Part shown: positions 11,213-47,500 of the stretch, in pieces | Layout: every line of letters starts with the position of its first letter | Numbering within the stretch: position 1 is the first letter of the stretch | NCBI GenBank assembly: GCA_963697205.1 | Contig: CAVONB010000009.1 | Span: forward strand, 25,833-89,832 | DNA length: 64,000 bases | Source: an uncultured Alphaproteobacteria bacterium | GTDB lineage: Bacteria > Pseudomonadota > Alphaproteobacteria > Rhizobiales > Hyphomicrobiaceae | Direction: 5' to 3' | Notes under the pieces: generated by a model | What the model saw: only the letters and a program-made list of their open reading frames with translations | What the model was told of the DNA's origin: nothing | The model's database searches: none | Position numbers and translations under genes: made by a program

Positions 11213-11268
11213 GGGCGCGCTCCGTGGGGGCGGGCGCGACGGTGTTTCTCGTCGCGCCCCCGCGTCCT

Positions 11269-16266: not shown

Positions 16267-16549
16267 CCAGCGAGCCTCGGCAGATCCACGCTACAGCCAT
16301 TCTATTGAGCAGGTGCAGCAGCGGCTGGCCAGATTGCAGCGGCGCAACAGATACCGAAAAATCTGACGTTTCGGCTTGGAATATCGCTTGCCTGCTCACG
16401 GAGTATGGCCCGTTCCTATCCTCGGGATTGGTTCGTCGTTTACCAAGCGGATCTCAGGGGTGGGATCTGCTGTGCCGTGTGGATTATGCATTGGATCGAC
16501 CGGGGGCATTCCCTACCTTCGGCGGAACCTGGGGAAATGCGCAGCGTCC

Positions 16550-20602: not shown

Positions 20603-20624
20603 TTCTGATTAGTGGGTTTCTGCG

Positions 20625-21314
20625 ATGCCATCCGACTGGCCAGGAACCGCCTTGCGTCTCGATCATTCGATCGCGGTGTTGACATTCGAGGGCTTGGCCG
20701 CGGTGGCACCGGCTGACCGCATCGCGCGGGTACAGCATCTCCTGCGACGGGCTGCAGGGCGAGACGACATCATCGTCGGGCGGAGACCAAGTGGTCGTCC
20801 CTGCCTCGGGCCGCCGCTCCCAGAGCTTGGGATTTCGGTCGCGCACAGCGGCTGCTCAAGTCTGATCGGTCTTTCCTGCAGTCGCGCTGTCGGCGTCGAT
20901 CTCGAACAGGAGACGAGATTTGAGCGTCTTGATGTCCGGCGACTGGCCCGCGATCACTTTTCGCCCGGTGAGCGGGCAGCAATCGCATCGCGCAAGGATG
21001 CCGAAGCAAAAGCGCTGTTCATGGCGCTTTGGGTGGCGAAGGAATCGATCTTGAAGCTCAGCGGCCGTGGCATAGTCGATGGGCTGGCCATGCCAGATTT
21101 GTCGGGTCATGTGGAGGCGCTGATGTCCGCGCATCTGACCGCGAACCAGCCTATCCCGATCGCTGTCGCCGACCTGTCTCTGATCGTCATCCGCATGGTT
21201 GCGGCGAGGAGGCCAACCGTCGTCGCTGCGCTTTGCCACGCTCAGGATCAAGTGCCGATCGACGCGGTAGGGCCGGAAGCAGCCGCCAGTCCTAGGCTTC
21301 GGTTTGAGCCTTGA
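20625..21314 (+). CDS. 4'-phosphopantetheinyl transferase (Sfp type)
   Basis: Starts 22 nt after the synthetase stop. GVDLEQ and WVAKESILKLSG motifs. Confidence 0.8.
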   Translation: MPSDWPGTALRLDHSIAVLTFEGLAAVAPADRIARVQHLLRRAAGRDDIIVGRRPSGRPCLGPPLPELGISVAHSGCSSLIGLSCSRAVGVDLEQETRFERLDVRRLARDHFSPGERAAIASRKDAEAKALFMALWVAKESILKLSGRGIVDGLAMPDLSGHVEALMSAHLTANQPIPIAVADLSLIVIRMVAARRPTVVAALCHAQDQVPIDAVGPEAAASPRLRFEP

Positions 21315-24251: not shown

Positions 24252-27200
24252 ATGTTCAATTTCCTCGTCACCAAGAGCCTCCAGAACAGGTTGTTGGTCA
24301 TCGCAGCGGCCATGCTGTTGGTGCTCTATGGCGCCTTCGTGCTGCCGAAGGTGCCGGTCGACGTCTTCCCCGACCTGAACAAGCCGACCGTCACGATCAT
24401 GACGGAGGCCGAAGGCCTCGCGCCCGAGGAGGTCGAGCTCAACGTCACCAATCGCATCGAGACCGCCATGAACGGTTTGCCGGGCGTCACGCGCGTACGC
24501 TCTGTCTCCGGCATCGGCCTGTCGATCATCTATGTCGAGTTCGAATGGGGCAGCGACATCTGGCGCAACCGCCAGCTTGTCGCAGAGCGGATGACCTCGA
24601 TCGGCAGTCAGCTGCCGCCGGGCATCACGCCGCAGATGGGACCGGTGACGTCGATCATGGGCGAGATCATGCTGATCGCGCTTCAGTCGGAGACGGTCTC
24701 GCCGATGGAGCTGCGCGAGATCGCCGACTACACGCTGCGCCCGCAACTGTTGACCATAGCCGGCGTGTCGCAGGTGATCCCGATCGGCGGCGAGGTGCGC
24801 CAGTTCCGCATCTCGCCCATGCCGGGCGCCATGCGCGCCGCGGGCGTATCGGCCGGCGAGATCGAGCGCGCGGCCCAACGCTTCGGCCAGAATGTCGCCG
24901 GGGGCTTCGTCGATCAGCAGGGCCGCGAGTTTCTCATCCGCGGCGTCGGCCTGACGCGTCGGCTCGATGACCTACGCAACGTTGTCGTGTCGACCCGTGA
25001 CGGCCAGCCGATCCTGATGCGGCAGGTGGCAAGCGTGGAGTTTGCCGCCCGCGTGAAGCGTGGCGAGGCCGGCTACCAGGGCAAGCCCGCCGTCATCGTC
25101 TCGGTCCAGAAGCAGCCAAACGCCGACACGATTGAACTGACGAAGCGCATCGAAGCCGTGCTCGAAGCTATGCAGGCGACATTGCCGCAAGGTGTCTCGG
25201 CCGACAACGTGCAGTTTCGTCAGGCGACCTTCATAGAGACGTCGATCGCCAATCTGAAATCGGTGCTGATCGAGGCGACCGCGGTGGTCGCCGTCGTGCT
25301 GTTCCTGTTTCTGATGAACTGGCGCGCCACGGTCATCTCTTTGACCGCCATCCCGGTCTCTATCCTGACCACGATCGTGATTTTCTCGCTGTTCGGCCTC
25401 ACCATCAACACGATGTCGCTCGGCGGACTGGCCATCGCGGTCGGGGAGCTGGTCGACGATGCCGTCGTCGACGTGGAGAACATCCTGCGGCGGCTGCGCG
25501 AGAACCGGGAGCGCGCCAAGCCACGTCCTGTGCTCGACGTGGTCGCCGCTGCCAGCCAGGAGGTGCGCTCCGGCATCGTCTACGCCACCGCGATCGTCAT
25601 CCTTGTGTTCGTGCCGCTGTTCGCGCTTTCGGGAATCGAGGGGCGCCTGTTCTCCCCGCTTGGCGTCGCCTACATCATCGCGATCCTGGCCTCGCTCGTC
25701 ACCGCCGTCACTTTGACCCCCGTAATGGCCTACTACCTGCTGGGAATACGAGCGAACGCGCATCGTGGCGACAATCCGCTGGTGCGGACGCTTAAATCGG
25801 CGAACCGCTCGGCCATGCTCTTCGCGTTCTCCAATCGTGCGTTGGTGCTGATGCTGGCCGCCGGTGCAGTAGCCGGCGCGGTGCTCGCCGCCCAATCCTT
25901 GCCGCGCAGCTTTCTGCCGCCCTTCAACGAGGGTACGCTGACGGTGAACGTGCTCTACGATCCCGGCATCAGCCTGAAGGAATCGAACCGCCTCGGCCTC
26001 GTCGCCGAGCAGCTCTTGCTCGGCGTGCCCGAAGTGAAGTCGGTCGGCCGGCGAACGGGGCGGGCGGAACTCGACGAGCACGCGGAAGGCGTCCACTCAT
26101 CCGAGATCGACATCGACCTCGTGCGCTCGGCCCGCTCCAAGGCAGAGGTCCTGGCCGACATCCGCCTGCGGCTGTCGGCGCTGCCCGTCGCGGTGAACGT
26201 CGGCCAGCCGATCTCTCACCGGCTCGATCATCTGCTTTCCGGCATCCGGGCCGAAATCGCGCTCAAGATCTATGGCGAGGATATCGACACGCTCCGCACG
26301 CTGGCGGAGGCGTTCCGCGAGCGGTTGTCGGCGCTGCCAGAGCTGGTTGACCTGCAGATCGAAAAGCAGGTGCGCATTCCCCAGGTGCGCGTCGCGGTCG
26401 ACTATCAGCGGGCCGCCCTCTACGGCCTGACGGCAGCCTCGGTCACGGAAGCCCTCGAGACGCTGTCGGCCGGGCGCGTGGTCTCGACCATCGCCGATGG
26501 GCTGAAGACATTCGAGGTCGTTGTCCGCCTCGCCGATGCCGACCGCTCCACCGCGGGGCTCGGTGCCATGCTGATCTCCACCCCTGCCGGCGTGATACCG
26601 CTGCGGCTCGTCGCCGACATCGAGGAGACCGAAGGACCCAACCAGATCCAGCGCGAGAACACGCGGCGCAGGATCGTCGTGTTCGCCAACACCGCCGACG
26701 GCGCCGATATGGCGCGCGTCGTCGCAGCCATCCGCGGCGAGATCGCAAAGGCAACGCTCCCTTCCGGCTATGCGGTGGCGCTCGAGGGCACGTTCGCGGC
26801 GCAGGAGCAGGCGTCCAAGCTGATAGGCATGCTGTCGCTCGTCTCCCTGGCGCTGATCTTCCTCATTCTGGCCTCGCGCTATCGCTCGGCCGTGCTGGCA
26901 CTCGTCATCATGGGAATCATTCCGATGGCGCTCGTCGGCAGCGTCGCCGGGCTGTACATCGCTGGCCAGCCGCTGTCGGTGGCCTCGATGATCGGTTTCG
27001 TGACGCTGGCGGGCATTACCGCGCGCAACGGCATTCTCAAGATCAGCCACGCGATCAATATCGCGATTGCCGAGCAGCTGCCGTTCGGGCCGGATCTCGT
27101 GATCCGCGCGAGCCTGGAGCGGCTGACGCCCGTACTGATGACGGCATTGTCAGCCGGCCTCGCCCTGCTCCCCCTGCTGTGGGCGGCCGATGCGCCCGGC

Positions 27201-27374
27201 CGCGAGATCCTGCACCCGGTCGCCGTCACGATTTTCGGCGGCCTTGTCTCCGCGACACTTCTGGACCTGGTCCTTACCCCGCTTCTGCTCCTGATGCTCG
27301 GGCAATCCGCCGTCACGCGGCTCGCGCAGGGGGGCGCCGCGAGCGCCGGTCTAAAGCCCGCCGAAGCTTACTGA
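24252..27374 (+). CDS. CusA/CzcA family heavy-metal efflux RND transporter
   Basis: 1040 aa with a 12-TM RND layout. N-terminus [27 protein letters not shown] and conserved blocks [16 protein letters not shown]. Confidence 0.92.
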
Positions 27375-31131: not shown

Positions 31132-32176
31132 GGCTCTGTTCCGCTTCAATGTAGCAGGGCCCGCTGCCCCATCGCTCCGGCGAGGCAATGTCGCGGCGTG
31201 AGCGCGTCACCGTCGCGCTCGATCATGCGGCGCCAGCCCAGGTAGCTCGGCAGATACTTCGACGCCACGCCCTTGAATCGAGCCATCCATCCCTTGAAGC
31301 GGCTCTGGTAGGCGTTGACGTTCTGGATGTGATAGCAGCCGATCGTCCGTTCGCCGGCGCTGGCGACGAGCGCAATCTGGACGATGTCTGTCGCAGCCGC
31401 GAATGCCTCGTAGGCCCTGTTGCCGTCGGTCACGAGCACGGCGTCCTTGGCGACGACGGGCTTTAGGTGCGACCCGATCGTCTCCCCGCTGAGGTCGAAG
31501 AGGATCGCGTCGGTGGTCTCGCCATGGCGGTCGCGCACGATCAGGATGGCATCGTGCTCATCGGTGGAAAGGCCCGGCTTCTTGGCTTTTCCGCCGCGCT
31601 TCCTGGGCGCGCGGCCGACCAGCTTGCGCGAGCCCTTCGCGGACTTGAGGATGAACGTCTCGTCCGCCTCGACGATGCCGGTCACCGCGCTCGCCTTCTT
31701 GTCCCTGGCCGTCGCGAGGAAGCGATGGCGCCAGCGGAACGATGTGTCCAGACGGATGCCGGTGCGCGCCGCCGCCTTGCGCAGGCTGACGCCGTCGACC
31801 AGCGAGCGGGCATAGTCGAGCCACTTCTCGCGCAGGCGCAGACCCGCCAGCGGCGTGCCGGTCAGCGCGTTGAAGGTGCGCCCGCACGCCTTGCACATAT
31901 AGCGTTTGAGATCCGAGGCCGAGCCCCACGGCTTGAAGTCAACCTCGCCGCAATGGCCGCAGGCCGGCGCTGCCGCGAACCGCGTTTCGATCATGGCGAC
32001 GACCTCCTCGCCGGCCCCCTTCGCAGACAGCGCCTCAACCAGCGCGTCGCGCTGGACCTGGCTGAGGTCGCCCAGTTGCTCGACAAGTGCCCGGAAGTCT
32101 TGCGCTTTCATGATATCCCCGCTGCCGCCAAATCAGTGGTCAGCAAGGTCTCACAACACTGAGGCGGAACAGAGCC
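31132..32176 (-). mobile_element. IS1595-family insertion sequence, apparently intact (1045 bp)
   Basis: Imperfect terminal inverted repeats GGCTCTGTTCCGC(T/C)TCA(A/G)TGT at 31132 and (reverse complement) 32176. Single transposase ORF, flanked by an 8-bp direct repeat. Confidence 0.85.
31146..32111 (-). CDS. IS1595 family transposase (ISXO2-like DDE)
   Basis: 321 aa. N-terminal zinc-ribbon CGHCG...CKACGRTF and DDE-type core (VEADETF ... LVTDGNRAY). Confidence 0.9.
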   Translation of the reverse strand: MKAQDFRALVEQLGDLSQVQRDALVEALSAKGAGEEVVAMIETRFAAAPACGHCGEVDFKPWGSASDLKRYMCKACGRTFNALTGTPLAGLRLREKWLDYARSLVDGVSLRKAAARTGIRLDTSFRWRHRFLATARDKKASAVTGIVEADETFILKSAKGSRKLVGRAPRKRGGKAKKPGLSTDEHDAILIVRDRHGETTDAILFDLSGETIGSHLKPVVAKDAVLVTDGNRAYEAFAAATDIVQIALVASAGERTIGCYHIQNVNAYQSRFKGWMARFKGVASKYLPSYLGWRRMIERDGDALTPRHCLAGAMGQRALLH

Positions 32177-32221: not shown

Positions 32222-32833
32222 CTAGCGCCCGCAGGCCGATTGCAGAAACGCTTCGCGCGCGCGCTGGCCGGCAGTGGCCGTTTCCAGGCTGACAAGCTGC
32301 CGGCACCATTCGTAGTGATGATCGAAATCCCCACTCCATTCGGGGCCGGACACGCCGCAGCGAAGCCGGCGCGCTCGCGCATATTGATCAATGGCGTTGC
32401 GCGCATACGCGAAGCATTGTGACGGACTTTGGCTACGCGTCTGCGGACAGCAGTAAGCTTTGTTGCCTCTCCGGCACGCCTTGCCATCGCCACTGACATC
32501 GCGCAGCGCCTGATAGTATCCAATGGGGCACGATCCATTGCAGAATGGTGCCGTGCCGAACCAACGGCAGTCGCCTGGGCGAAGGTAGGAGGCCTCTGCG
32601 GGAACCGAGCAGCGCATGCGACGCATTGGTGTTGTCTCGCATGCCACCAGGGTGCAATTCGTCACGGTCCCATTCACACAATCGCAACGATTGCAGCCGT
32701 CCGACATGACGCGGCAATGCCAGGGACAGCTTTCGGCGCGCGCGGGAGCGCTGTCGGTGGCAATGGAAAGGACGCTCATGATGAGCGCGCACAGCGAACA
32801 CAATGCGCGCCGGAACGCACGGGGCATCCTCAC
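32222..32833 (-). CDS. Secreted cysteine-rich hypothetical protein
   Basis: 203 aa. Signal peptide MRMPRAFRRALCSLCALIMSVLSIATDSAPARA. More than 20 Cys in clustered patterns (CPWHC..CNRCDC, WFGTAPFCNGSCP...AYCC). Confidence 0.6.
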   Translation of the reverse strand: MRMPRAFRRALCSLCALIMSVLSIATDSAPARAESCPWHCRVMSDGCNRCDCVNGTVTNCTLVACETTPMRRMRCSVPAEASYLRPGDCRWFGTAPFCNGSCPIGYYQALRDVSGDGKACRRGNKAYCCPQTRSQSPSQCFAYARNAIDQYARARRLRCGVSGPEWSGDFDHHYEWCRQLVSLETATAGQRAREAFLQSACGR

Positions 32834-33104
32834 GCCCCATCCATTGCCAGAACCGCTGCCGTCGCCCGCCGCGGGCCGGAAATGATATCCGTTTTCGCAG
32901 CCGTACGCCCTGGCGGGGCGGGAACGGCCAGAAGTGCTGCGAAGGGCAATTGATCCGCCAATTCTCGCATCGCGTGCTCCACGGGTTCCAGGTGTGCGGA
33001 AATGAAGGCACCAGAAAATGAGGTCATTTCGAACCAGCTTGCCAATCGCGTCAAGCTATGGATACTCATAGTTCGTAAGCGTATCGATTGACGATTTCGT
33101 TTGA

Positions 33105-34178
33105 TTGGACAGGTGTAGCGAGCATGCCAAGCGACGGTCTTCCGGCGTTCGCCCTCGTGCCGCCACCCCGGTATTTGGATGTCCCGCCATGGTCACGCTG
33201 ACCCCGCGAGAACGCGATTGCCTGCGACTGCTTGGCCAGGGACTGTCGACGGCGGATGTCGCCACCGACCTCGGCATCCGAAAGTCCACGCTGGAGTCCC
33301 ACCTCGCCGCCGCCCGCCGCAAACTCGGGGTCGCAACGACCCGTCAGGCGGTCTTGGTGAGCGCACTGCAATCCAGGCCCAGCCCCGCGGGTGGTTCAGC
33401 TGTCAATGGCGAGGCGCTGCGCCGGTTCGCCGAGCACTCTGCTCTCGCAACGGATGTTGCCGACGTCCTCATGCGTAGTAGCTGCTTCAAACAGGGTTGG
33501 GACGCTCTGGTCGATGCAGTCGGAGCACTGGGCGTGCAGCACCTCAGCCTCGGCTTGATCGCCGAGCCCGAAGGCACGCTGTCAAATGGCGGGCGGCGAA
33601 TCGCAACGAGCTTCCTTCCGCAGGAATTTTCCAAAGAGATAGGCGATCCCGACGACTTCTCGCGCGATCCAATCGGGAAATACGTCACCAGTCACCGACA
33701 GGGCCGCGTACTCGACTCCGTCAGCATTCTCGATCCGGATGATCAGAGCGTCCACGAGAACTTGCGTGCCATCGCCAGCGCCTACATGGATTGCGGTCTT
33801 CGCTACGTCTACTGCCAACCGGGGCGCGATGCCGCGACGATGGCGGCACATGCGCTTTTCTACAGTCTGGATGGGACGGCGGTGAGAGATTGGGCGCGCG
33901 ATCATGCAGCTCTGCATGACGAATGCAGCGCCATCTCGGATCTCTTTTGGACGATCGCTCAGGAGCGTCGGTGGCTGGCACCCTTCTCGGAATTGACACT
34001 GGCACAAGCAGCAGCGCTGCGCTGCCTTGCCCGAGGTTTTACAAGTGCCGAGGCCGCTGAGCAGCTCGGCGTCTCTCTGCGCGGCTTCGAAAAGCATCTG
34101 GCGGGCGCGCGCGTGAATCTCAAGGCGCGCACGAATGCGCAGGCGGTGTACCGGGCGATGGTGTACCGGGCGCTTTGA
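33105..34178 (+). CDS. LuxR-family regulator with N- and C-terminal GerE-type HTH modules (copy 1)
   Basis: N-terminal LTPRERDCLRLLGQGLSTADVATDLGIRKSTLESHLAAARRKL, central ligand-domain-like region, C-terminal LTLAQAAALRCLARGFTSAEAAEQLGVS. The start is uncertain (33105 or ATG 33189). Confidence 0.75.
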   Translation: MDRCSEHAKRRSSGVRPRAATPVFGCPAMVTLTPRERDCLRLLGQGLSTADVATDLGIRKSTLESHLAAARRKLGVATTRQAVLVSALQSRPSPAGGSAVNGEALRRFAEHSALATDVADVLMRSSCFKQGWDALVDAVGALGVQHLSLGLIAEPEGTLSNGGRRIATSFLPQEFSKEIGDPDDFSRDPIGKYVTSHRQGRVLDSVSILDPDDQSVHENLRAIASAYMDCGLRYVYCQPGRDAATMAAHALFYSLDGTAVRDWARDHAALHDECSAISDLFWTIAQERRWLAPFSELTLAQAAALRCLARGFTSAEAAEQLGVSLRGFEKHLAGARVNLKARTNAQAVYRAMVYRAL

Positions 34179-34411
34179 GGCGTCGACGGCGGACGTGCAG
34201 CGGGGCTGGATGAGGAAGAAGAGATGAAGCGGCGTCCTTCGTTCGATGATGTGCTGACCCCGCGCGAACGCGATTGCCTGCGACTGCTTGGCCAGGGACT
34301 GTCGACGGCGGATGTCGCCACCGACCTCGGCATCCGAAAGTCCACGCTGGAGTCCCACCTCGCCGCCGCCCGCCGCAAACTCAGCGTCTCAACCACCCGG
34401 CAGGCGGTTGT
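34125..34411. repeat. ~287-bp near-identical repeat spanning the gene 1 / gene 2 junction of the LuxR array (partner at 35166-35452)
   Basis: By-eye alignment at a 1041-bp offset gives 2 mismatches (gtg/gcg at ~34251, tcc/ttc at ~34353). Confidence 0.8.
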
Positions 34412-35219
34412 TGTTCTACAGGATGACCGAAGTCCAGAAATGATGGCCCATCCGCAAGAGCAAGTGCTTCTGATCAGGGCGCAACTCTCTTCCATCGATA
34501 GCCATCTGCCCGATCTGCAAGGCGCAACGAGCCTGGCCCAGGCATGGCGACGGTTCTGCCGCGCGATGGAGGAGCTCGGTGTTGCGGGCGTAAACTTTGG
34601 TGTTATCGCGGAACCCGAAGCAGTCACGACGGTCGACAATTGGTACTTTAGATCCTCGCTTCCGCACGAGGTTTCGTCCCTTTACCTGCAATGTGGAGGC
34701 GTCGCGACCGACCCCAACGTTCCGCGTTTCGCCTGCAGTCGCGCTCCTTTCCTGATTGATGCCGCAAGCCTGAAGGGGCAGTTCTCTACGCTGCCGCCGT
34801 CGGCACGGCGCTTGGCCACGAGCATGCTCGACCACCACCTGACACTTTCGGTTTGTGCACCTTTGCGGGACGAGACAACCAGAGCACTTATGGGGGCGGC
34901 GTTCGTGCTCGATCCGTCCGAGCATTCCGCCGTGCAGCGGCACCGCTCGGAACGGACGGCGCTTCTTCAAAGCGCGGCGGTCTACTTCGCGGCCTGCGTC
35001 CGCAACCAGCGGCTTCTTTCGGACATCCCCGGACTGACCCAGAGAGAAGTCGCAGCCCTTAAGCTCCTGGTGCGAGGGTTCAGCATGCAGTGCGCGGCCG
35101 AGCGCTCGGGTCTATCGCAGCGCGGATATGAGAAAGTCCTAGCCGTGGTGCGCGCGAAGCTGGGCGCGCGCACGAATGCGCAGGCGGTGTACCGGGCGAT
35201 GGTGTACCGGGCGCTTTGA
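34224..35219 (+). CDS. LuxR-family regulator with N- and C-terminal GerE-type HTH modules (copy 2)
   Basis: 331 aa. Same terminal modules as copy 1 with a divergent central domain. Confidence 0.8.
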   Translation: MKRRPSFDDVLTPRERDCLRLLGQGLSTADVATDLGIRKSTLESHLAAARRKLSVSTTRQAVVVLQDDRSPEMMAHPQEQVLLIRAQLSSIDSHLPDLQGATSLAQAWRRFCRAMEELGVAGVNFGVIAEPEAVTTVDNWYFRSSLPHEVSSLYLQCGGVATDPNVPRFACSRAPFLIDAASLKGQFSTLPPSARRLATSMLDHHLTLSVCAPLRDETTRALMGAAFVLDPSEHSAVQRHRSERTALLQSAAVYFAACVRNQRLLSDIPGLTQREVAALKLLVRGFSMQCAAERSGLSQRGYEKVLAVVRAKLGARTNAQAVYRAMVYRAL

Positions 35220-35452
35220 GGCGTCGACGGCGGACGTGCAGCGGGGCTGGATGAGGAAGAAGAGATGAAGCGGCGTCCTTCGTTCGATGATGCGCTGACC
35301 CCGCGCGAACGCGATTGCCTGCGACTGCTTGGCCAGGGACTGTCGACGGCGGATGTCGCCACCGACCTCGGCATCCGAAAGTCCACGCTGGAGTTCCACC
35401 TCGCCGCCGCCCGCCGCAAACTCAGCGTCTCAACCACCCGGCAGGCGGTTGT
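35166..35452. repeat. ~287-bp near-identical repeat spanning the gene 2 / gene 3 junction of the LuxR array
   Basis: Partner of 34125-34411. Confidence 0.8.
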
Positions 35453-36272
35453 CGCGCTATTCACCCCGAAGCCGGCAACAGCTAGCACGACCTGTGATAG
35501 CGAGTGGCCGCTTTTGGACGCAGCTGAGCCCGACCGTCTCGCCGCTGATGCTGGCAGCGCTTTGGCAGGCGCTGTTGGACTGAATGATGGCTGGAATCGT
35601 CTCGTGCGACACGTCGCGACGTTCGGTGCGGTCGAAACGACGATAGGCGTGATCGCGGAACCCGAGGGCACGTTTTCGATCGGCGGACGGCTTCTGCGGT
35701 CGACCTTTCTGCAGCCCAACGTCACCGACAATCTGGCCGAACCCCCCGATATGGCCAACAATCCCATCGGCTCCCACTTCGCGCACCAGCAGGTCGGACG
35801 GCTTTTCGACTGTGAAGAATGCTTCGGCCCGATGAGCCAGAACGTCAATCCTGTGCTTCGTAGCATCGCCCTGGCGTTTCTCGAGCAGGGCCGGCGCTAC
35901 CACTACTGTCAGCCCGGGCGCGACCCCGTGACGACCGCGCCCTACGTCCTGTTCTTCAGTCTCGACCACACCGCGAGCACCGACATACGCAAGGGACGAT
36001 CAAACGTGCCGGCCGCGCTGCAGGCAGTGTCCGAGGTCATGTGGCGAATGGCGCAGGAGCACCGCTGGCTCGCCGGCTATGCGGGTCTGACCGGCGCGCA
36101 GACCGCCGCACTCAAGCTCCTGGCCCGCGGCTTCTCGATGGCGGAGGCGGCCGAGCACTGCGGAGTTTCGCAACGTGGCTTCGATAAGGTGCTGGCCGCG
36201 GCCCGAACGCGGCTCGATGCGCGGACCAATGCGCAAGCGCTCTTCCGCGCGATGGTGTACCGGGCATTCTAG
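35265..36272 (+). CDS. LuxR-family regulator with N- and C-terminal GerE-type HTH modules (copy 3)
   Basis: 335 aa. Same terminal modules with a divergent central domain. Confidence 0.8.
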   Translation: MKRRPSFDDALTPRERDCLRLLGQGLSTADVATDLGIRKSTLEFHLAAARRKLSVSTTRQAVVALFTPKPATASTTCDSEWPLLDAAEPDRLAADAGSALAGAVGLNDGWNRLVRHVATFGAVETTIGVIAEPEGTFSIGGRLLRSTFLQPNVTDNLAEPPDMANNPIGSHFAHQQVGRLFDCEECFGPMSQNVNPVLRSIALAFLEQGRRYHYCQPGRDPVTTAPYVLFFSLDHTASTDIRKGRSNVPAALQAVSEVMWRMAQEHRWLAGYAGLTGAQTAALKLLARGFSMAEAAEHCGVSQRGFDKVLAAARTRLDARTNAQALFRAMVYRAF

Positions 36273-36442
36273 GCCAAAGGTGCGAAATTCCCCAAGGGGT
36301 GCAGCGCAGCCCGCATTTCGCAGGTTCGCAACGCCGGCCCCGACGAGCCCTCCTGATACCAGAAAAAAAATCGGGTCCTGGTGCGGAAAACCACACCGAT
36401 CTCCAAGTTTTGAAGGATTGTGCCGCGCCCAGCCTGCGCCAC

Positions 36443-36748
36443 ATGATGCGCGAGCCACCCGAAGCGAATTCAGTGACAGGGCTCACGATGCAGGATTTCG
36501 CATTGCCGCTAGACGATGAAACCGAACGGCCAGCGTCCGGCCACGCCGACGTGACGCTTTCGACCCGCGAGGCGGAGTGTCTTTTATGGCTCGCCCGCGG
36601 GCTGAGATCGGCAGCCATCGCCGAGAGGTTGTCGCTCGCCGTTGTCACGGTGGAGCTGCACATCAAGAACGCGCGGGTCAAGCTCGGCGCTACGACGCGC
36701 GAGCATGCGGTCGCAAAGGCCATAACGCTCGGCCTGATCGCGCCGTGA
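36443..36748 (+). CDS. Small LuxR/GerE-type HTH protein (DNA-binding domain only)
   Basis: LSTREAECLLWLARGLRSAAIAERLSLAVVTVELHIKNARVKLGATTREHAV. The start is uncertain (ATG 36443 or 36488). Confidence 0.65.
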   Translation: MMREPPEANSVTGLTMQDFALPLDDETERPASGHADVTLSTREAECLLWLARGLRSAAIAERLSLAVVTVELHIKNARVKLGATTREHAVAKAITLGLIAP

Positions 36749-36832
36749 CTGGCAGGCGGCGCGATAGGCGACGAGCGGCCACCTACGCAATTCCATAGGT
36801 CGTCTCGTGTGAAACATTGCGGGAGAGAGGAA

Positions 36833-38332
36833 ATGGCGGCATTGCGATCGTCACGGGTCATCGGCCAGGCACTGGCCATCTCATCGGCGCTGTCCATCTG
36901 GACGACCACGGCACTGGGGTGCGGACCTGGCCCGTTCATCGTCAACGACGCCGGCGAGCCCACCGGCGCATTGACGGCGTGCGCCAACCGCTCGGTCCGT
37001 TGTACGTTGCGGGACGCGGTCAACGCCGCCAACCAGTGCGCCGGACGCGGCATGCGCACGATCCGCATCACCGGTATGACCGCGCGATTGTCGCGCGAGC
37101 CGAATAACAACGAGCCGGGCGGCTACGCTCGTCAGGACGGCCGCTCGGCGCTCACGATCAATGAAAACGTGCAGGTGACCATCAGCGGCGGTGGACGAAT
37201 CGAGCGCGCCGGTAACAACGCATTCCGCCTCTTCCGCGTGGCTCCGCGCGCAAGCCTCACGATCGTGGGCATGACGCTGTCGAAAGGACGGCTGCCGCTT
37301 GGACGTGGGGCGGAAGGCGAAGGCGCGGCTATCCTCAACCGGGGCACGCTTACGATCAGGGGGCCACGCGCCTATCTCGTCGACAGTTCGGCAACGCAGA
37401 GCGGCGGCGCCATCGCGACCTATGGACGTCTCGAGATTGTCGACGCTGAACTGAGCGGGAACCGATCCGGCATCGGCGGTGCTGGTGGCGGCGCCCTCTT
37501 CGTGGCGCCCGGAGCGGAGGCGACGCTCACCAGGGTCAAGTTCCGCACGAACGCGGCGGGCTCGTTCGGCGGTGCCGTCGATACACACGGTCGCCTGACC
37601 GTCTCGCAATCGACCTTCGAGGAAAACAATGGAACTGACGGCGGCGCCATCACGGTGCGTGCGATGGGAACGCTCGACGTCAGCCAATCGCTGTTCCGCG
37701 CCAACACGGCATCCAGCTCGGCCGCCATCCGCCTCCTGCCTAATTCCAACGCCCTCTCGACCATTTCCGCGTCGACCTTCTCCGCCAACCGCGCGTCACG
37801 TATCGGCGGGGCTATCGAGGTCTCGTCGGGACGCGCAAAGCTTCACGACTTGACAATCACGCAGAACTCGGCGCCGACCGGCTCAGGCCTTGTTTCAGGT
37901 TCAAGCGGCCGGGTCGAGATCATCAACTCGATCATCGCTGACAATCGCGTCGGACCAAGCTGTGCAATGACGATGGCGCCGACGTTGCAGAACCCGAACC
38001 TCAACGACGACGGCTCGTGTGCCGGCATGTCCGTGAGAGGCGCTCCGAAGCTGCAACCACTCAGGCTGGCAGGCGGCGCAACCGCCGTGCATCTGCCCTT
38101 CCCGGGCAGTCCGGCGATTGAGAGCGGGGCCGGCTGCCTCAGCGTCGATCAGCGGGGCCGAGCGAGACCGTCAACGCCGACCGCGAGCCAGGGACGATGC
38201 GAAATCGGCGCGGCCGAGGTGACCACTGCCACCGACCTCGGGCATCGCACGCCCCTGCCGCCCGGCAAAGCCGACGATGTTCTGAAGGAGCCCCGCATGC
38301 TGCCGGGCGGCGGGCCGCTCAAGCGCTTCTGA
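36833..38332 (+). CDS. Secreted right-handed beta-helix repeat protein (Pmp-repeat / choice-of-anchor-Q-like)
   Basis: ATG 36833 after GGGAGAGAGGAA. Signal peptide. CTLRDAVNAAN head motif, repeated GGAI/GGAL-containing ~25-aa turns, C-terminal DQRGRARP...CEIGAAE. Confidence 0.75.
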   Translation: MAALRSSRVIGQALAISSALSIWTTTALGCGPGPFIVNDAGEPTGALTACANRSVRCTLRDAVNAANQCAGRGMRTIRITGMTARLSREPNNNEPGGYARQDGRSALTINENVQVTISGGGRIERAGNNAFRLFRVAPRASLTIVGMTLSKGRLPLGRGAEGEGAAILNRGTLTIRGPRAYLVDSSATQSGGAIATYGRLEIVDAELSGNRSGIGGAGGGALFVAPGAEATLTRVKFRTNAAGSFGGAVDTHGRLTVSQSTFEENNGTDGGAITVRAMGTLDVSQSLFRANTASSSAAIRLLPNSNALSTISASTFSANRASRIGGAIEVSSGRAKLHDLTITQNSAPTGSGLVSGSSGRVEIINSIIADNRVGPSCAMTMAPTLQNPNLNDDGSCAGMSVRGAPKLQPLRLAGGATAVHLPFPGSPAIESGAGCLSVDQRGRARPSTPTASQGRCEIGAAEVTTATDLGHRTPLPPGKADDVLKEPRMLPGGGPLKRF

Positions 38333-38422
38333 GGAACCGATGCGGGAGGTCTGTCGCAGCCCTTCAGTCTCCAAGCAGCAACTCTGCATTAGGTGCATTT
38401 TCGAATTCCGGGAAAACAATCC

Positions 38423-40204
38423 ATGCATTCATTTACTGCAGCGTCGAACCTGTCTCAGATCGTTCGCACCCTCGCGGCAGCCGGCATCCTTGTCATCGCA
38501 GCAACCCCGTCAGATGCGCAGTCCTTCAAAATCGAGAAGGGCACGACCTACCCCGGCGGGACCTACAAGCGGTTTGCGCCGGGCAGCGGAGCACTCGCGG
38601 CGTGCGAGAAGGCGTGCGCATCGGATGTCAAGTGCATCGCGTTCACCTACGATCGGCCGGACAAGAAAATCCCCCAGGGCCAGTGCTCGCTCAAATCGCA
38701 GATCGTGCAACGGCGGCCGGCCGAATGCTGCACGTCGGGCCTCAAGCAAGCGGCCTCGCGACCCGATCAACGCGGTAAGCATCCGGGCTTCCCCGTCGGC
38801 GACGCCCTTCCTCGCGGCGCCCTGGCCGGCAAGATTGCAACCGGCGTGCCCGCCTCGGCGTCGCGGGACCCCATGTTCGTCCGCGGCATCGAGGCACCGT
38901 TCGCCAAAGCCATGCTGCACCTGCCCGGCGCGCGAACCGCGCGGGAGGTGCACTATCAGCTCGTCGACGGCGTCGCCGTCATGGAAGGCGACATCGTGCT
39001 CGGCCGGCCGCAAGACTTCGCCCGCCGTTTCAAACCGCCGCAGCCGCCTCTCGTCGTGCAGCCGCTACCGCCGCGTCAGGGCGACATCGGCGGTCGCAGC
39101 GATCCGCTCGTGGCCACCAACCGCCTCGAGTTTTTGTGGGGGGGAGGTGTCATCCCCTACACGATCGATCGCGCCTTCTCGGCTTCGGAGACGGCGAGCA
39201 TCGTCAGCGCCATCACGACGCTGAACGGTTACGGCACCCCCGTGCAGCTGCGCCCGCGGAACGGCGAGCGCGACTTCATTCGCTTGAAGAAGGTGACGAA
39301 CAAACCCTATTGCGGCATGTCTCCGCTCGGACGTCAGGGCGGACCGCAGGACATCGAGATCGACCAGTCGTGCGTAGGCACTCCCGGGGTCATTATGCAC
39401 GAGATCCTGCACTCGGCAGGCGTCTACCACGAGCACACGCGTGCCGATCGGGACCGCTTCATTCAGATCAACTGGTCGAACATCGAGCGGAGGTTCCGGC
39501 CGCAGTTTCTGGGATCGGGCGAAACGATGGACATCGGGCCCTATGATTTCAACTCTGTGATGCATTACGGTGGGTTTGCCTTTGCGAAGCAGGACGGCAA
39601 CGGCAACGCTCTGCCCACGATCGTGCGCCGGGACGGCCAGCCGGTCATCGCAAACCGCGCTGGGCTCAGCGCCAGCGACATCGCGGCCCTTCGCCTGCTT
39701 TATGCGAACCCCGGCGATGCTCCACTGCCGGTCAACCAGACACGCCTCCTGTCCGTGACGATCGAAGGCCTGCTCGCCCGATCGACAGACAGCTGCAACG
39801 GGAAGATGGATTTCTACGCCATCGTCGAGGTCGGCGCGGGCTGGACATGGCGGGTGAACGAGAGTGGTCCCCGCAGTCGGCGCAAGTTCCCGGTCGTGCA
39901 GGGCAACAACATCCGGCCCAACTGGACGTTGTCGGGGAACGTGCCAGCCCTCATAGACAACGCCAAGGTCACGATACGCGTCATGGACAACGACGACCTT
40001 GTTTGTGGCGGCGACGATGACGTCGTCGACGTCAATCCCGACACCAACCGCACCCACCTCGAGTTGCTCGTCAATACGGTCACAGGTCAAGTCTGGCGCG
40101 ACAGCCCGGACCATCCGGTCGGTTGGCTCGGCGACAGTTTCCTCTTCGCCGGCTCGCACGGCCGCGAGAACGCCGCCATTCTCGTGCGCCTCGGCTTGCG
40201 CTGA
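38423..40204 (+). CDS. Secreted astacin-family (M12A) zinc metallopeptidase with N-terminal PAN/Apple-like domain
   Basis: Signal peptide. Cys-rich CEKACASDVKCIAFTY...QGQCSLKS. Zinc motif HEILHSAGVYHEHTRADRD and Met-turn SVMHY. Confidence 0.85.
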   Translation: MHSFTAASNLSQIVRTLAAAGILVIAATPSDAQSFKIEKGTTYPGGTYKRFAPGSGALAACEKACASDVKCIAFTYDRPDKKIPQGQCSLKSQIVQRRPAECCTSGLKQAASRPDQRGKHPGFPVGDALPRGALAGKIATGVPASASRDPMFVRGIEAPFAKAMLHLPGARTAREVHYQLVDGVAVMEGDIVLGRPQDFARRFKPPQPPLVVQPLPPRQGDIGGRSDPLVATNRLEFLWGGGVIPYTIDRAFSASETASIVSAITTLNGYGTPVQLRPRNGERDFIRLKKVTNKPYCGMSPLGRQGGPQDIEIDQSCVGTPGVIMHEILHSAGVYHEHTRADRDRFIQINWSNIERRFRPQFLGSGETMDIGPYDFNSVMHYGGFAFAKQDGNGNALPTIVRRDGQPVIANRAGLSASDIAALRLLYANPGDAPLPVNQTRLLSVTIEGLLARSTDSCNGKMDFYAIVEVGAGWTWRVNESGPRSRRKFPVVQGNNIRPNWTLSGNVPALIDNAKVTIRVMDNDDLVCGGDDDVVDVNPDTNRTHLELLVNTVTGQVWRDSPDHPVGWLGDSFLFAGSHGRENAAILVRLGLR

Positions 40205-40298: not shown

Positions 40299-41054
40299 AT
40301 GATCGGTGTTTCCAGACCTTTTGCCCTGTGCCTAGCCCTCGTCGGACTGACAATTGCCGCGGAACCGGCCTGGAGTCAAAACTCGCTGAGTGTCGACTGC
40401 CCTTGTTTGAAAGAGCGATTGGAGTTTCGTTTTCAGCCGCCACCGGGTTGGACAAAGAGCTTTGATTCCATATCCCCCAGTTGTGGAACGGCAGAGATTC
40501 TGGACAGGCCGAGCTATTATGGTCGATTGCAGTGCACGTATTTACCGCAAATCTTTGTTCAACATCGCATTCCTGCAGATTTCCCAAATTGCACGGTCAA
40601 TACGTCCGGGAAGGCGGGATTCACCTGCACGAACAACCTGCCGACGGTCCTTGCAGAGTTCTCGTTCGAGGTGCGGCCCAGTTATATGTTCAAGCGAGGA
40701 AACATACGGGACCTGCGCGGAAGCCTCAAAGAGGGCTGGCCCAGTGGTCAGCCGCTCTTTTGGAACAACGCCATCTCAAACACGCAGCAGAACCTGGAGT
40801 CGCCTCCAGATCGGAATAATCGGCTTGCGGTTTTCGGACCTAGCGAGCCGACTACCGCGCAATGCCTTCAAGCCCTGCAGGCGCGAGGCGCAAACAGGGT
40901 CTCGTTCAGGGCCTTGCAGCCGGGGCGCTGGGTTTGTCTGCAGGAAATATCATGGACCGTTTTCCTCATCCGCGTCGATCGTCTGGACGGGGCCGGCGAA
41001 CGTCCAAAAACCATCGTTGGATTTGCAAAGGCTACCCGGGCGTCAAGTCGATAG
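40299..41054 (+). CDS. Secreted hypothetical protein
   Basis: ATG 40299. Signal peptide MIGVSRPFALCLALVGLTIAAEPAWS. Locally reduced GC. No family recognised. Confidence 0.6.
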   Translation: MIGVSRPFALCLALVGLTIAAEPAWSQNSLSVDCPCLKERLEFRFQPPPGWTKSFDSISPSCGTAEILDRPSYYGRLQCTYLPQIFVQHRIPADFPNCTVNTSGKAGFTCTNNLPTVLAEFSFEVRPSYMFKRGNIRDLRGSLKEGWPSGQPLFWNNAISNTQQNLESPPDRNNRLAVFGPSEPTTAQCLQALQARGANRVSFRALQPGRWVCLQEISWTVFLIRVDRLDGAGERPKTIVGFAKATRASSR

Positions 41055-41348
41055 GGCACTGGCCAGCCAGCAGGATCGCGAGGGGCCGGGCTTTCCATTG
41101 TTCTGCGGAGGTGCGCCTCCTTCGTGCGGTCAACAGCGCAAGAGGGTCGGACATTGTCGGGATGCCTGACTGCTGAGGCTGAGACCAATCGAAAGGACTT
41201 CGATCTGGCGAAGTTACAGACACGTGCTGATGACAAATGCGCTGGTCCGTCGATACCTTTCGCAATATGGACTTCCATAGATTGACAGGTCAAATCTTTG
41301 AAGATGGAATTGAATAGACATTTTCAGTCTACTGGGGGAGTTGCCTCG

Positions 41349-41942
41349 ATGTTCATGCGTTCTTTGATCGTAGCCGCCATGACCGTTGTCGCTATCGACT
41401 GCAATACACAGGCCCAAGCCGCGAATTGCTCCGGCGCCGTCGGCAAGGTGACGGCGGTGAGCACGGACCGCATGGTGCGGCCGAGCGCGAACTACGCTGG
41501 CGACCGGCGGCTCGCACCCGTGCTCAGCGCCAGGGTCGTGCTCGACAAGCCGGTCACCTGCGTTGTCGTGCACGTCAGTGCATATATCCAACCGGCGGAC
41601 AATCACGCAGCCTTTCAGGTGACGATCGATGGCGCGCCGATGGCGGGGCATGCTGCGACGTTTCCGGGAACGAATTACAACATCCCGGCAGTATCAGAGC
41701 CTGTTCACAATCTGCCCAAATGGGTGTGGCGCTTGGCACCGGAAGTGAAGCCGCGGCCGCCAGCCTATCCCGCGCGTGAGAGCTTCCACGATGTGCCGCG
41801 CACGGTTGGATATATGTTCTTTCAAACGGTCAGCGGTCAAAAGACAGCCGTCATCCAGCTATCGATCGCGGACTGCTGCTCGCCGCGTCAAGGGGGCGGC
41901 AACACGCTGGTTCATGCGGCAACTCTCACCGTGTTTCACTGA
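41349..41942 (+). CDS. Secreted hypothetical protein
   Basis: ATG 41349 after GGGGGAG. Signal peptide MFMRSLIVAAMTVVAIDCNTQAQA. No family recognised. Confidence 0.55.
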   Translation: MFMRSLIVAAMTVVAIDCNTQAQAANCSGAVGKVTAVSTDRMVRPSANYAGDRRLAPVLSARVVLDKPVTCVVVHVSAYIQPADNHAAFQVTIDGAPMAGHAATFPGTNYNIPAVSEPVHNLPKWVWRLAPEVKPRPPAYPARESFHDVPRTVGYMFFQTVSGQKTAVIQLSIADCCSPRQGGGNTLVHAATLTVFH

Positions 41943-44225: not shown

Positions 44226-44598
44226 AAGGGTGATGCGCGAGGGTGCGCCCCGCCTTTAGATGGTCATCGGCACAAGAGGCACAGCAATCTGGAAGATAAG
44301 TATATCCCCTGATTGTCGAATTTCGAGGCCGAGTGGTTTGATCAAGCAGTTCGACAAATTGTGCCGAACAGTGCGCGTTTTTAGGAAGTGCGGGAGAGTT
44401 CGATGACGAAGAGCCAAAACGCCTCGGCCGCAACGGCCGCGCCTCACACATGCCCACGGCATTGGCCAGCAGTTCCAGCCGTGAGCGCGCCGCCCGGTGC
44501 GCTTTGCGCAGCCTAGGCTCAACAATTTTCAGACATCGACGCGGCGGCGCCTCCAGCGCTCGCTGAGAGAGCATTTCTCCATTTTCAGGAACAAAGCC

Positions 44599-47500
44599 AT
44601 GGCATCCCCAACCGATATCCTCGTCTCCGGCGGCATCGTGCGCGAGCGCGAGATCAACGGCGTCGTCATCGCGACTCTGGCGACGGTCGACGCCGATCCG
44701 GGTGACACCTTCACGTACGCGATCACCAACGATCCGTCGGGCGCCTTCACGATCGTGGGCGACGAGATCCGCGTGCTCGATGGAACCGCGATCGACTACG
44801 AGACCGCCGATAGCATGCAGGTGACCGTCGAGGTGACGGATTCCCAATTCAACACGTTCTCCAAGATCGTCACGATCTCGGTCCTGAACCTCAACGAAAT
44901 CGACGGTGATGGAAATCCGAACACCATTCCCGGCACGGTGGGCGACGACGTTATCGATGGTCTGGCGGGCAACGATTCGATCACGGGCGATGCCGGCTCC
45001 GACATCCTCTACGGCGGCGCGGGGCTCGACACGCTGCGCGGCGGCTTCGGCGATGATTACCTCGACGGCGGCACGGAGAACGATCAGCTCTACGGTGACA
45101 CGGGCGCGGATACGCTGATCGGCGGCGACGGCAACGACCGGCTTGAAGCGCGGGGCGCGGGCAGCTCGCTCGACGGCGGCGAGGGCAACGATCAGCTCTA
45201 CAATTTTGCCACCTCCGGGACCGCGACCCTGGTAGGCGGCGGGGGCAATGACACGCTCCGGGCGTCGACCTCCAACTCGGCAATCAACGAGACCCTCTCC
45301 GGCGGCGCCGACGACGACCGGATTGAATATGTCGGTCTTTATTCCAGCGACACCGTCGATGCCGGGACCGGGAATGACACGGTGCTGTTATACGGATACA
45401 CGAACAGCGGACAGGTCAGCACGCTGACCCTCGGCGACGGCCAGGACACCATTGGCTTCTTTGCGTCCAACCCTCAGCTCAATGTCCAGCACGCCACGGT
45501 CACCGACTTCGCGACGGGCGCGGGCGGCGACCGGCTCGACCTCACATTCATCCTGAGCAACCTCACCGGCTACGGCGGCACCAACCCGTTCGGCTCGGGC
45601 TTCCTGCAACTCGTCGCGGATGGCGTCGACACGCTGCTGCAGGTCGACGCCAACGGCGCGACGGGTGGCTCCAGCTGGACGACGCTGTTCCGCTTCCAGA
45701 ACACCGCCCCTGGCGATTTCACTGCCGACAACTTCACGCCCGCATGGCCGACCGACGGCAGCGCGCCGGCTGGACAGAACATCGTCGGCACGCCCGGCAA
45801 CGACCAGGGTCTGACGCAGATCGTCGGCACGCTCGGCGACGACACCATCGATGGCCTGGGCGGCAACGATTCGATCACGGGTGACGCCGGCTCCGACACC
45901 ATTTACGGCGGTGCGGGTCTCGACACGCTGCGCGGCGGCTTCGGCGACGATTACCTCGACGGCGGCACGGAGAACGATCAGCTCTACGGTGACACAGGCA
46001 CGGATACGCTGATCGGCGGCGACGGCAACGACCGGCTTGAAGCGCGGGGCGCGGGCAGCTCGCTCGACGGTGGTGAGGGCAACGATCAGCTCTACAATTT
46101 TGCCACCTCCGGGACCGCGACCCTGGTAGGCGGCGGGGGCAATGACACGCTCCGGGCGTCGACCTCCAACTCGGCAATCAACGAGACCCTCTCCGGCGGC
46201 GCCGACGACGACCGGATTGAATATGTCGGTTTTTATTCCAGCGACACCGTCGATGCCGGGACCGGGAATGACACGGTGCTGTTGTACAGCTTCACGAACA
46301 GCGGACAGGTCAGCACGCTGACCCTCGGCGACGGCCAGGACACCATTGGCTTCTTTGCGTCCAACCCTCAGCTCAATGTCCAGCACGCCACGGTCACCGA
46401 CTTCGCGACGGGCGCGGGCGGCGACCGGCTCGACATCACATTTATCCTGAGCAACCTGACCGGCTACGGCGGCACCAATCCGTTCGGCTCGGGCTTCCTG
46501 CAACTGGTCGCGGATGGCGTCGACACGCTGTTGCAGGTCGATGCCAACGGCGCGACGGGCGGCTCCACCTGGACGACGCTGTTCCGCTTCCAGAACACCG
46601 ACCCCGGCGATTTCACTGCCGACAACTTCACGCCCGCATGGCCGACCGACGGCGACTCGTCACGGGCGGCGGCAACATCGATTCGCTCGCCGGCGATTCC
46701 GGTAACGACGGCTATTACCTTCGACGGAAGCGCCAGCGCGCCGGCTGGACGAGAACATCGTCGGCACGCCCGGCAACGACCAGGGTCTGACGCAGATCGT
46801 CGGCACGCTCGGCGACGACACCATCGATGGCCTGGGCGGCAACGATTCGATCACGGGTGACGCCGGCTCCGACACCATTTACGGCGGTGCGGGTCTCGAC
46901 ACGCTGCGCGGCAACGACGGAAACGACACCCTGACCGGCGGACCGGGTGTCGACGAACAGCACGGCGAGGCCGGCGACGACGTCTTCATCGTCACCGCAG
47001 CTGATCTTGCGCCCGGCGAGATCATCGACGGGGGCGCGGACATCGACACCCTGCGCATCGAGGGTGGCGGCACCGTCGACCTCACCACCGGCATCACGCT
47101 GACGAGCATTGAGCAGATCGAACTTGCAGGTCCAGGCAACACGACCGCCTTAGTCACCGCCGCCCAGGCCGCGCTGATCACCAGTGCGGCCGGCGCCAAC
47201 GACATCGTCCAGATCGCGAGCGGCAGCCCCAATGAGGCACTGGTGAAGCAGCTGATCGACGCCGGCGTCGAACGCGTCGAATGGTCGATCCCGGGATTCG
47301 CGTCCGCAGTGGAGGCCGTGCCCGACGGTCTCGGTGGCTTCATCATCTCCTACGACGACGGCGACGACCTGAAGCCCTGGGATACGATCGACGCCCAATA
47401 CGACAGCTTCGGCCGCAAGGTCTCGCAGACCAACGACTACGACTTCCCGGGGCCCGAGGGCGGCATCACATCGAACTACACCTTCGATCCCGCGACGGGG

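Follow-up and report, generated by a model that had tools for sequence, protein, structure and literature searches.

LuxR-type regulators with a helix-turn-helix at both ends, in a tandem array of three genes from an uncultured alphaproteobacterium

A 64,000-nucleotide stretch (the window) of contig CAVONB010000009.1, from an uncultured alphaproteobacterium of the family Hyphomicrobiaceae, carries between about 33.1 and 36.3 kb three consecutive plus-strand open reading frames (ORFs), each encoding a helix-turn-helix (HTH) at the N-terminus, a linker, a core of the LuxR-receptor type, and a further HTH at the C-terminus. Three tandem genes with an HTH at both ends of a ligand-domain-like core had been proposed in a first-pass annotation of this DNA, and the ORFs, Pfam matches, profile alignments and structural models now agree on that architecture. 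With moderate confidence, the genes are taken to encode functional LuxR-type receptors and transcription factors of an undescribed subfamily, in which both HTH pairs of a dimer would contact DNA on a bipartite operator, the paralogues sharing the site of the N-terminal HTH (N-HTH) and differing in what they sense. That confidence covers the demonstrated parts (architecture, selection, ancestry and gene conversion) together with the mechanism proposed from them. The coordinates of all features are collected in Table 1.

Genes 2 and 3 have the 331 and 335 amino acids first assigned to them, whereas the 357 given for gene 1 belong to its maximal ORF, which opens with a TTG at 33105; the protein on record starts instead at the ATG at 33189 and has 329 residues. 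The shared opening block LTPRERDCLRLLGQGLSTADVATDLGIRKSTLE(S/F)HLAAARRKL was found in all three genes as described, and the core motifs RDPIGKYV and CGLRYVYCQPG are both present, in gene 1. The reading frame is open and uninterrupted through the three genes, which are separated by two spacers of 45 nucleotides (nt) each, identical in sequence. A Shine-Dalgarno-like GAGGAAG lies 7-13 nt before the ATG of gene 2, with the same site and ATG for gene 3, and in every relative checked the start codon stands some 9-12 residues ahead of the N-HTH.

The profile search that had been set as a test of the N-terminal module gave a strong Pfam GerE match in all three genes (51-64 bits, E 1e-14 to 1e-17; 63.7 bits in gene 2 and 53.7 in gene 3), and the full-length scan of gene 1 returned GerE in two stretches. 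In place of the canonical single DNA-binding domain at the C-terminus, a second and stronger GerE domain is thus found at residues ~3-64, in the three genes and in 44 of 44 aligned family members. A Response_reg domain upstream of GerE, as in the NarL/FixJ layout, had no Pfam match in the three genes, and NCBIfam matches to MctR, MadR and NarL cover the HTH only and lie far under their cut-offs. Between orthologues of different genomes, the ratio of nonsynonymous to synonymous differences (pN/pS) of the N-HTH ranges over 0.25-0.54, eight of the nine pairs lying at 0.25-0.35; corresponding values are 0.2-0.6 for the core, 0.2-0.5 for the C-terminal HTH (C-HTH) and 0.5-1.2 for the linker. Mean pairwise identity among 33 close family members is 53% in the N-HTH, 49% in the C-HTH, 26% in the core and 16% in the linker. 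The comparisons indicate that the N-HTH is translated and under purifying selection and that the linker, of about 40 residues, evolves fast and almost neutrally; because pN/pS and family identity are alike for the two HTHs, both are seen to be kept by selection.

An untranslated leader or a wrongly placed start, which would remove the N-terminal module from the protein, was rejected on the evidence of the open frame, the Shine-Dalgarno-like site with its ATG, the conserved architecture and a pN/pS near 0.3. A wider form of the same doubt holds that the module is an untranslated leader, a pseudogene remnant or a duplication made in assembly. Near-identical repeats at N-termini and junctions can indeed come from mis-assembly, and it is uncertain where gene 1 starts, but the frames, the start signals and the selection on the N-HTH speak against any such artefact, the stretches that separate the repeats are each unique and have diverged, unlike a collapsed or duplicated assembly, and the same architecture recurs at 33-47% identity in independent metagenome-assembled genomes (MAGs) and metagenomes. 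It is judged extremely unlikely.

The core was earlier called ligand-domain-like, and both its fold and its profile homology to autoinducer-binding domains uphold the term. By Pfam, gene 2 alone reaches the Autoind_bind cut-off, the cores of genes 1 and 3 having no Pfam match; the three are as different as had been noted, at 23-39% identity to one another. Against twenty single-HTH relatives of about 245 amino acids, the core on its own gave an hhalign probability of 99.5% (E 7e-23), and the core and C-HTH appear from these sequence relations to descend from the clade of such ~245-residue LuxR-type proteins. AlphaFold monomers of gene 2 (mean predicted local distance difference test, pLDDT, 91.5; predicted template modelling score, pTM, 0.79) and gene 3 (pLDDT 88.8, pTM 0.74) each show two four-helix bundles, between which lie first the linker and then an alpha/beta/alpha sensor. 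Their best Foldseek matches were QscR, TraR, RhlR, LasR, SdiA, CviR and CepR2, all at probability 1.00; the alignments span ~240 columns with full-length QscR, TraR, RhlR and SdiA, and in fold the core corresponds to the ligand-binding domains of LasR, CepR2 and QscR. Both hallmarks of the LuxR superfamily, an Autoind_bind-type sensor and a C-terminal four-helix HTH, are accordingly present.

The ligand pocket was mapped by hidden Markov model alignment to LasR and by residue counts in family columns, at TraR W57, Y61, D70, P71 and W85 (LasR W60, Y64, D73, P74 and W88), with TraR G113 also listed. The equivalent of LasR Y56 is L; in place of W60, genes 1, 2 and 3 have F, V and V, and the family L, V or I; in the same gene order, Y64 is represented by I, Y and L, D73 by D, D and N, and W88 by L, I and F, with P74 retained. 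Both tryptophans that define receptors of N-acyl homoserine lactones (AHLs) are replaced in nearly the whole family and in its closest single-HTH relatives. Because most of the AHL-contacting residues that mark such receptors are thus substituted, AHL sensing seems unlikely, and the pocket may bind another ligand or nothing.

It could still be that these are ordinary AHL receptors, served by a LuxI encoded elsewhere in the genome and carrying the additional HTH as a neutral passenger of an old fusion. The fold and the nearest solved structures are those of AHL receptors, the Asp-Pro pair (LasR D73-P74) is retained in genes 1 and 2, and the examination covered one window of 64 kb. Yet the equivalents of Y56, W60 and W88 are replaced in all three genes and almost throughout the family, with N for D73 in gene 3, and an Autoind_synth domain found no match among the roughly 35 of roughly 50 window ORFs that were scanned with Pfam. 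A neutral passenger would also fit poorly with a pN/pS of about 0.3 and a mean family identity of 53% in the N-HTH, and the explanation is considered very unlikely. The label "solo-type", given to the genes at first, holds for the roughly 35 ORFs scanned and does not extend beyond them.

The LuxR-type HTH that had been placed at the C-terminus was borne out by profile, four-helix models and Foldseek, at a score below the Pfam cut-off. A family profile aligns over residues ~100-338, end to end, with the PDB chains of RhlR, LasR, QscR and TraR. The C-HTH is accepted as real because the family profile, hhalign and AlphaFold/Foldseek support it despite the sub-threshold score; it is divergent, and the more divergent of the two HTHs.

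The array has a composite history. Between the paralogues, synonymous divergence (dS) exceeds 1.6, that is, saturation, in linker, core and C-HTH, as against 0.00-0.10 in the N-HTH. A repeat of 300 nt and 89% identity covers the two gene junctions, and its N-HTH part recurs at 33197-33352 (a 156-nt repeat, 96%). The core of gene 2 is nearest to protein P0009 of another sample (45%) and only 23-25% identical to those of genes 1 or 3; that of gene 1 is nearest to P0012 (43%), against 23% to gene 2. Because dS is 0-0.10 in the N-HTH and junctions and saturated elsewhere, the paralogues are taken as old, with N-HTHs and junctions recently homogenised by gene conversion or by unequal exchange confined to the junctions. 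Recent tandem duplication as the source of the identical N-termini was ruled out by the saturated dS and by cores closer to proteins of other samples, and recent insertion of an HTH cassette before three ordinary luxR genes by P0009 and P0012, which have their own diverged N-HTH.

A weaker form of the same trend is present in a tandem pair of family genes (9974-10978 and 11127-12116) in locus L004, a Methyloceanibacter MAG, where the pair is flanked by four RTX-repeat genes. Its two copies share 90-97% of their DNA at the ends and 56-70% in the cores, and third-codon-position identity is 77-90% in the N-HTH versus 42-57% in the core; in the second copy, four residues are missing from the AEP motif, which elsewhere is invariant. 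Homogenisation may be mechanical, or it may have been favoured by a shared DNA site or by pairing through the N-HTH.

The survey of how widespread the architecture is, which the first-pass annotation had called for, revealed a conserved family of ~45 protein clusters and not a one-off. A word-indexed search of 5.8 billion proteins returned, besides the three window proteins, a single metagenomic relative of the same layout. Profile searching, run exhaustively on 1.84 billion cluster representatives (50% identity), gave 39 proteins at E<1e-30, and about 35 full-length proteins (327-390 amino acids) cover both HTHs (E 1e-54 to 1e-161). The same two-HTH span is found in 11 further proteins (344-359 amino acids), which form a separate clade at greater distance. 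Among aligned members GerE is recognised in 44 of 44 and Autoind_bind in 17 of 44 at E<=1e-3. Among 185,579 species genomes, eight MAGs had the gene, full-length in seven and frameshifted in one, and all eight are alphaproteobacterial (Bauldia, Methyloceanibacter and unclassified); one genome per species was scanned with exact peptide patterns, and the count is a lower bound. No relatives were found on the plasmids of PLSDB, and no description of a LuxR protein of HTH-sensor-HTH layout was found in the open literature, most subscription journals lying outside that search. The two-HTH subfamily is thus small, rare and undescribed, so far known from a few uncultured soil and water Alphaproteobacteria.

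An N-terminal GerE domain is not in itself unique to the family. Proteins of about 250-280 amino acids in Caulobacter, Phenylobacterium and Brevundimonas (L012, L014, L015, L017, L042 and L052, with the match near 10001) have an HTH of the LTPRERDCL type followed by ~200 residues of an unrelated region, and P0005 has a similar N-terminal HTH and then a hydrophobic C-terminal stretch. The profile search also returned chains with 4-16 separate GerE-type matches (P0040, P0048, P0050, P0066 and others; for example, 478 amino acids with six matches, 584 with seven and 2854 with 13), which may be real multi-HTH proteins or fused gene calls.

In the mechanism proposed for the two-HTH receptors, the sensor domain would mediate dimerisation, by analogy with TraR and LasR, and each dimer would then have four HTHs, one pair being N-terminal and the other C-terminal. 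With both pairs on DNA, the operator would be bipartite or extended. The identical N-HTHs would bring the three paralogues to one common type of site, the different cores would answer different non-AHL cues or none, and the output would comprise the neighbouring exoprotein genes and the operon of the regulators themselves.

Several points weigh against this proposal. With the C-terminal ~70 residues scanned alone, the C-HTH falls under the Pfam GerE cut-off of 23.5 bits in all three genes, and gene 3 draws generic HTH matches only. By sequence reading, Q takes the place of TraR E178 in the family consensus and in genes 1 and 3; because of this Q and the sub-threshold score, canonical DNA binding may have been lost from the C-HTH. 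As for the output, control of neighbouring exoprotein genes is the most economical guess, made from position.

Operator searches belong on the same side of the balance, since none was established at the window or at related loci. A ~47-nt block, GCCAATGGCAAGAAATGGNTAGATCGG...CATAAAAT (GCCAATGGCAAGAAATGGNTAGATCGGTNCGGNAATCCGCATAAAAT), precedes family genes by 90-130 nt in six loci; within it, a 10-bp direct repeat, AATGGCaAGA / AATGGCtAGA, directly adjoins a -35/-10-like TAGAYC-16-TAnAAT. The block is a candidate autoregulatory site, present in a single copy per locus, not upstream of RTX genes, and absent from the window. A palindrome, CTATGG-N4-CCATAG (16 bp, with 1-2 mismatches), occurs at 33056-33071, 36783-36798 and 41265-41280, all of them promoters of the gene island described below; it was rejected as an operator, three occurrences being observed for 0.82 expected, with three reached in nine of 100 shuffles, and the motif being post hoc and absent from related loci.

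The same divergence of the C-HTH is the starting point for a division of labour between the two HTHs, in which the N-HTH reads DNA and the C-HTH has been repurposed for dimerisation, contact with RNA polymerase, or autoinhibition. The N-HTH is a canonical GerE domain at 51-64 bits, as against 0-20 bits for the C-HTH, whose recognition helix reads S-x-R-x-x-E-K-x-L where S-x-x-T-V-x-x-H is usual; a very conserved YRAMVYRAL tail is an unusual trait of the family, and the Q at the E178 position would fit as well. The C-HTH is nevertheless as conserved as the N-HTH (49% vs 53%), is under similar purifying selection, and retains the four-helix fold, with Leu and Gly where TraR has L182 and G188. 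Furthermore, the closest single-HTH relatives have a similar C-HTH (RTVEKRLA...AVYKA) as their sole DNA-binding domain. Such a division is thought unlikely, if with a chance that deserves some weight.

GerE-type domains normally act in pairs, as in the structures of GerE, NarL and TraR, and this pairwise habit leads to a different picture, in which the two HTHs of one chain form the pair and a monomer reads an operator of two half-sites, with the core setting the geometry. The pTM of 0.79 and 0.74 for a three-domain chain suggests a docked N-HTH, and the direct repeat in the conserved promoter block of relatives would suit such a reader. The linker, however, is a low-confidence part of the model and close to neutral in its evolution, dimers are the general rule for LuxR-type sensor domains, and the repeat is confined to closely related promoters and may reflect shared ancestry, so that a monomeric pseudo-dimer is regarded as rather improbable. 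A bolder version of the preferred mechanism, with four HTHs per dimer, is that such dimers bridge two operator sites, the converted N-HTH serving as a shared anchor, mixed dimers being possible, and several cues being integrated at RTX-type promoters; it is put forward tentatively, as an outcome we would not ourselves expect. DNA looping and three-ligand function, as first imagined for the array, are hypothetical.

Table 1. Features of the array, its surroundings and related loci (window positions unless a locus is named)
Feature	Position	Strand	Details
Gene 1, two-HTH LuxR-type regulator	33189-34178	+	329 amino acids from ATG 33189; database protein P0002 (MVTLTPRERD start)
Gene 2, two-HTH LuxR-type regulator	34224-35219	+	331 amino acids; ORF, Pfam, AlphaFold, Foldseek
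Gene 3, two-HTH LuxR-type regulator	35265-36272	+	335 amino acids; ORF, Pfam, AlphaFold, Foldseek
Gene 4, small LuxR-family protein	36299-36748	+	Maximal ORF 149 amino acids; GerE 49.8 bits, residues 86-140
N-HTH, gene 1	33195-33359	+	GerE 51.5 bits, profile positions 2-56 of 57 (segment scanned alone)
N-HTH, gene 2	34248-34415	+	GerE residues 9-64; model helices 13-23, 28-35, 39-52, 58-68
N-HTH, gene 3	35292-35453	+	GerE residues 10-63; four helices in model
Ligand-binding-type core, gene 2 (Autoind_bind fold)	34536-34994	+	Residues 105-257, 26.8-28 bits; hhalign 99.5%; TM 0.7-0.78 to LasR ligand-binding domain
Equivalent cores, genes 1 and 3	~33480-33950 (gene 1), ~35580-36050 (gene 3)	+	
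C-HTH, gene 1	33993-34151	+	GerE 18.9 bits; family profile aligns with DNA-binding domains of SdiA, TraR, RhlR
C-HTH, gene 2	35034-35192	+	GerE 20.1 bits; model helices 273-283, 288-294, 299-313, 318-327
C-HTH, gene 3	36093-36257	+	No GerE match, HTH_23 21.8 bits only; four model helices at 277-331; Foldseek
Homogenised junction segment (gene 1 3' end, 45-nt spacer, gene 2 N-HTH)	34053-34352	+	dS 0-0.10 vs >1.6 elsewhere
Second copy of homogenised junction (gene 2/gene 3)	35094-35393	+	
47-nt block	L001 1179-1230; L002 9836; L004 9847; L005 9880; L007 9846; L008 2853		
IS1595-family transposase	31146-32111	-	DDE_Tnp_IS1595 + zinc ribbon
Cys-rich protein, candidate target	32222-32833	-	Signal-peptide-like N-terminus; divergent from gene 1; faint Pacifastin_I match only
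Divergent intergenic region, gene 1/Cys-rich gene	32834-33188		Promoter-like TTGCCA-16-GATACT at 33039-33066; overlapping dyads 33036-33073
Right-handed beta-helix protein, candidate target	36809-38332	+	Pfam Beta_helix; signal-peptide-like N-terminus
PAN + astacin metalloprotease (M12A), candidate target	38393-40204	+	Astacin 125.8 bits, PAN_4; signal-peptide-like N-terminus
Two proteins without Pfam match	~40300-41054, 41298-41942	+	Signal-peptide-like N-termini
RTX + cadherin protein	44497-46860		

Beyond the array, a fourth gene starts 26 nt past gene 3 and is probably in the same operon. The C-terminal LuxR-type HTH is the only domain that Pfam recognises in it, without a sensor domain, and its true start may be an internal ATG. 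Fusion of an HTH-only gene of this kind upstream of a sensor and HTH gene could yield the two-HTH architecture.

The candidate targets listed in Table 1 lie on both sides of the array and include an astacin, a protease family uncommon in bacteria. In the six relatives with flanking sequence (L001-L006) the family gene adjoins at least one gene with RTX calcium-binding repeats, divergently in five of the six, and the neighbour in L082 encodes a Calx-beta protein of at least 1062 amino acids, the contig ending within the gene. Beyond secreted or RTX genes nearby, no orthologous neighbours were found in common between the window and the relatives. In locus L005, an AI-2E family transporter gene (PF01594; 10975-12450, plus strand) lies 24 nt downstream of the two-HTH gene and is possibly co-transcribed with it.

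GC content at third codon positions is 0.67-0.80 for genes between ~27.8 and 42 kb, as against 0.81-0.91 in the flanks, which suggests that this segment is a horizontally acquired or weakly expressed island. Elsewhere in the window (16376-21314, plus strand) lie genes for a 1408-residue stand-alone adenylation and carrier protein with a hexapeptide-transferase region and then for a 4'-phosphopantetheinyl transferase, followed by an RND efflux pair, HlyD-like (22587-24242) and AcrB (24252-27374). The enzymes of 16376-21314 could, from their domains, make a small acylated or aminoacyl product.

LuxR-type receptors are textbook one-sensor, one-HTH regulators and widely used parts in synthetic biology. 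If the proposed arrangement is true, a second HTH across the sensor would give four DNA-binding heads per dimer and alter the stoichiometry of DNA recognition, and the family could offer a view of bipartite-operator reading, or of DNA looping, by a ligand-gated regulator. Old, divergent cores joined to a repeatedly homogenised DNA-binding head also make a clear case of concerted evolution limited to one module, and this pattern suggests that target sharing among the paralogues was selected for, or was at least made possible. Practical impact is modest for now, because the family is small and comes only from uncultured Hyphomicrobiales-like Alphaproteobacteria.

Among known systems, the canonical receptors TraR, LasR, RhlR, QscR, SdiA and CviR have, like the family, an Autoind_bind-fold sensor followed by a four-helix GerE-type HTH; they are its best structural and profile matches, and the Asp-Pro pair of their pocket is kept in most family members. 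The family adds to this plan the N-terminal GerE HTH and the ~40-residue linker, making four HTHs per dimer, and differs further in that the AHL-contacting aromatic residues are mostly replaced, the C-HTH is sub-threshold, and no LuxI was found among the window ORFs scanned. VisN and VisR, which act as a heterodimer in Sinorhizobium, are also encoded by adjacent LuxR-type paralogue genes and are a precedent for paralogues acting together. Unlike the two-HTH family, they have no second HTH, and NCBIfam matches to VisR/VisN (E 1e-6 to 6e-3) lie so far under the cut-offs that the window genes are not members.

LuxR solos that do not sense AHLs include the plant-signal group OryR/XccR/PsoR and PluR/PauR of Photorhabdus. 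With these the family shares the sensor and HTH and substitutions in the pocket. The solos, too, often occur as several paralogues, sometimes in tandem, and they have no adjacent synthase, a gene for which there was no match here among the roughly 35 window ORFs scanned; the solos have the standard two-domain layout of ~240-260 amino acids, unlike the two-HTH proteins. Tandem LuxR solos have been noted in Rhizobiales, and the domain architectures listed in the same survey include none with an N-terminal HTH (PMC4338825). Closest of all to the core and C-HTH are the single-HTH relatives of about 245 amino acids (P0053, P0057, P0058, P0065 and others; E 1e-13 to 1e-25), which share the motif TLP..L...Y...GG...DP and a similar C-HTH, and of which all four tested have Autoind_bind and GerE. 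They are without the N-terminal HTH and linker; their layout is probably ancestral, with a fusion giving rise to the two-HTH family.

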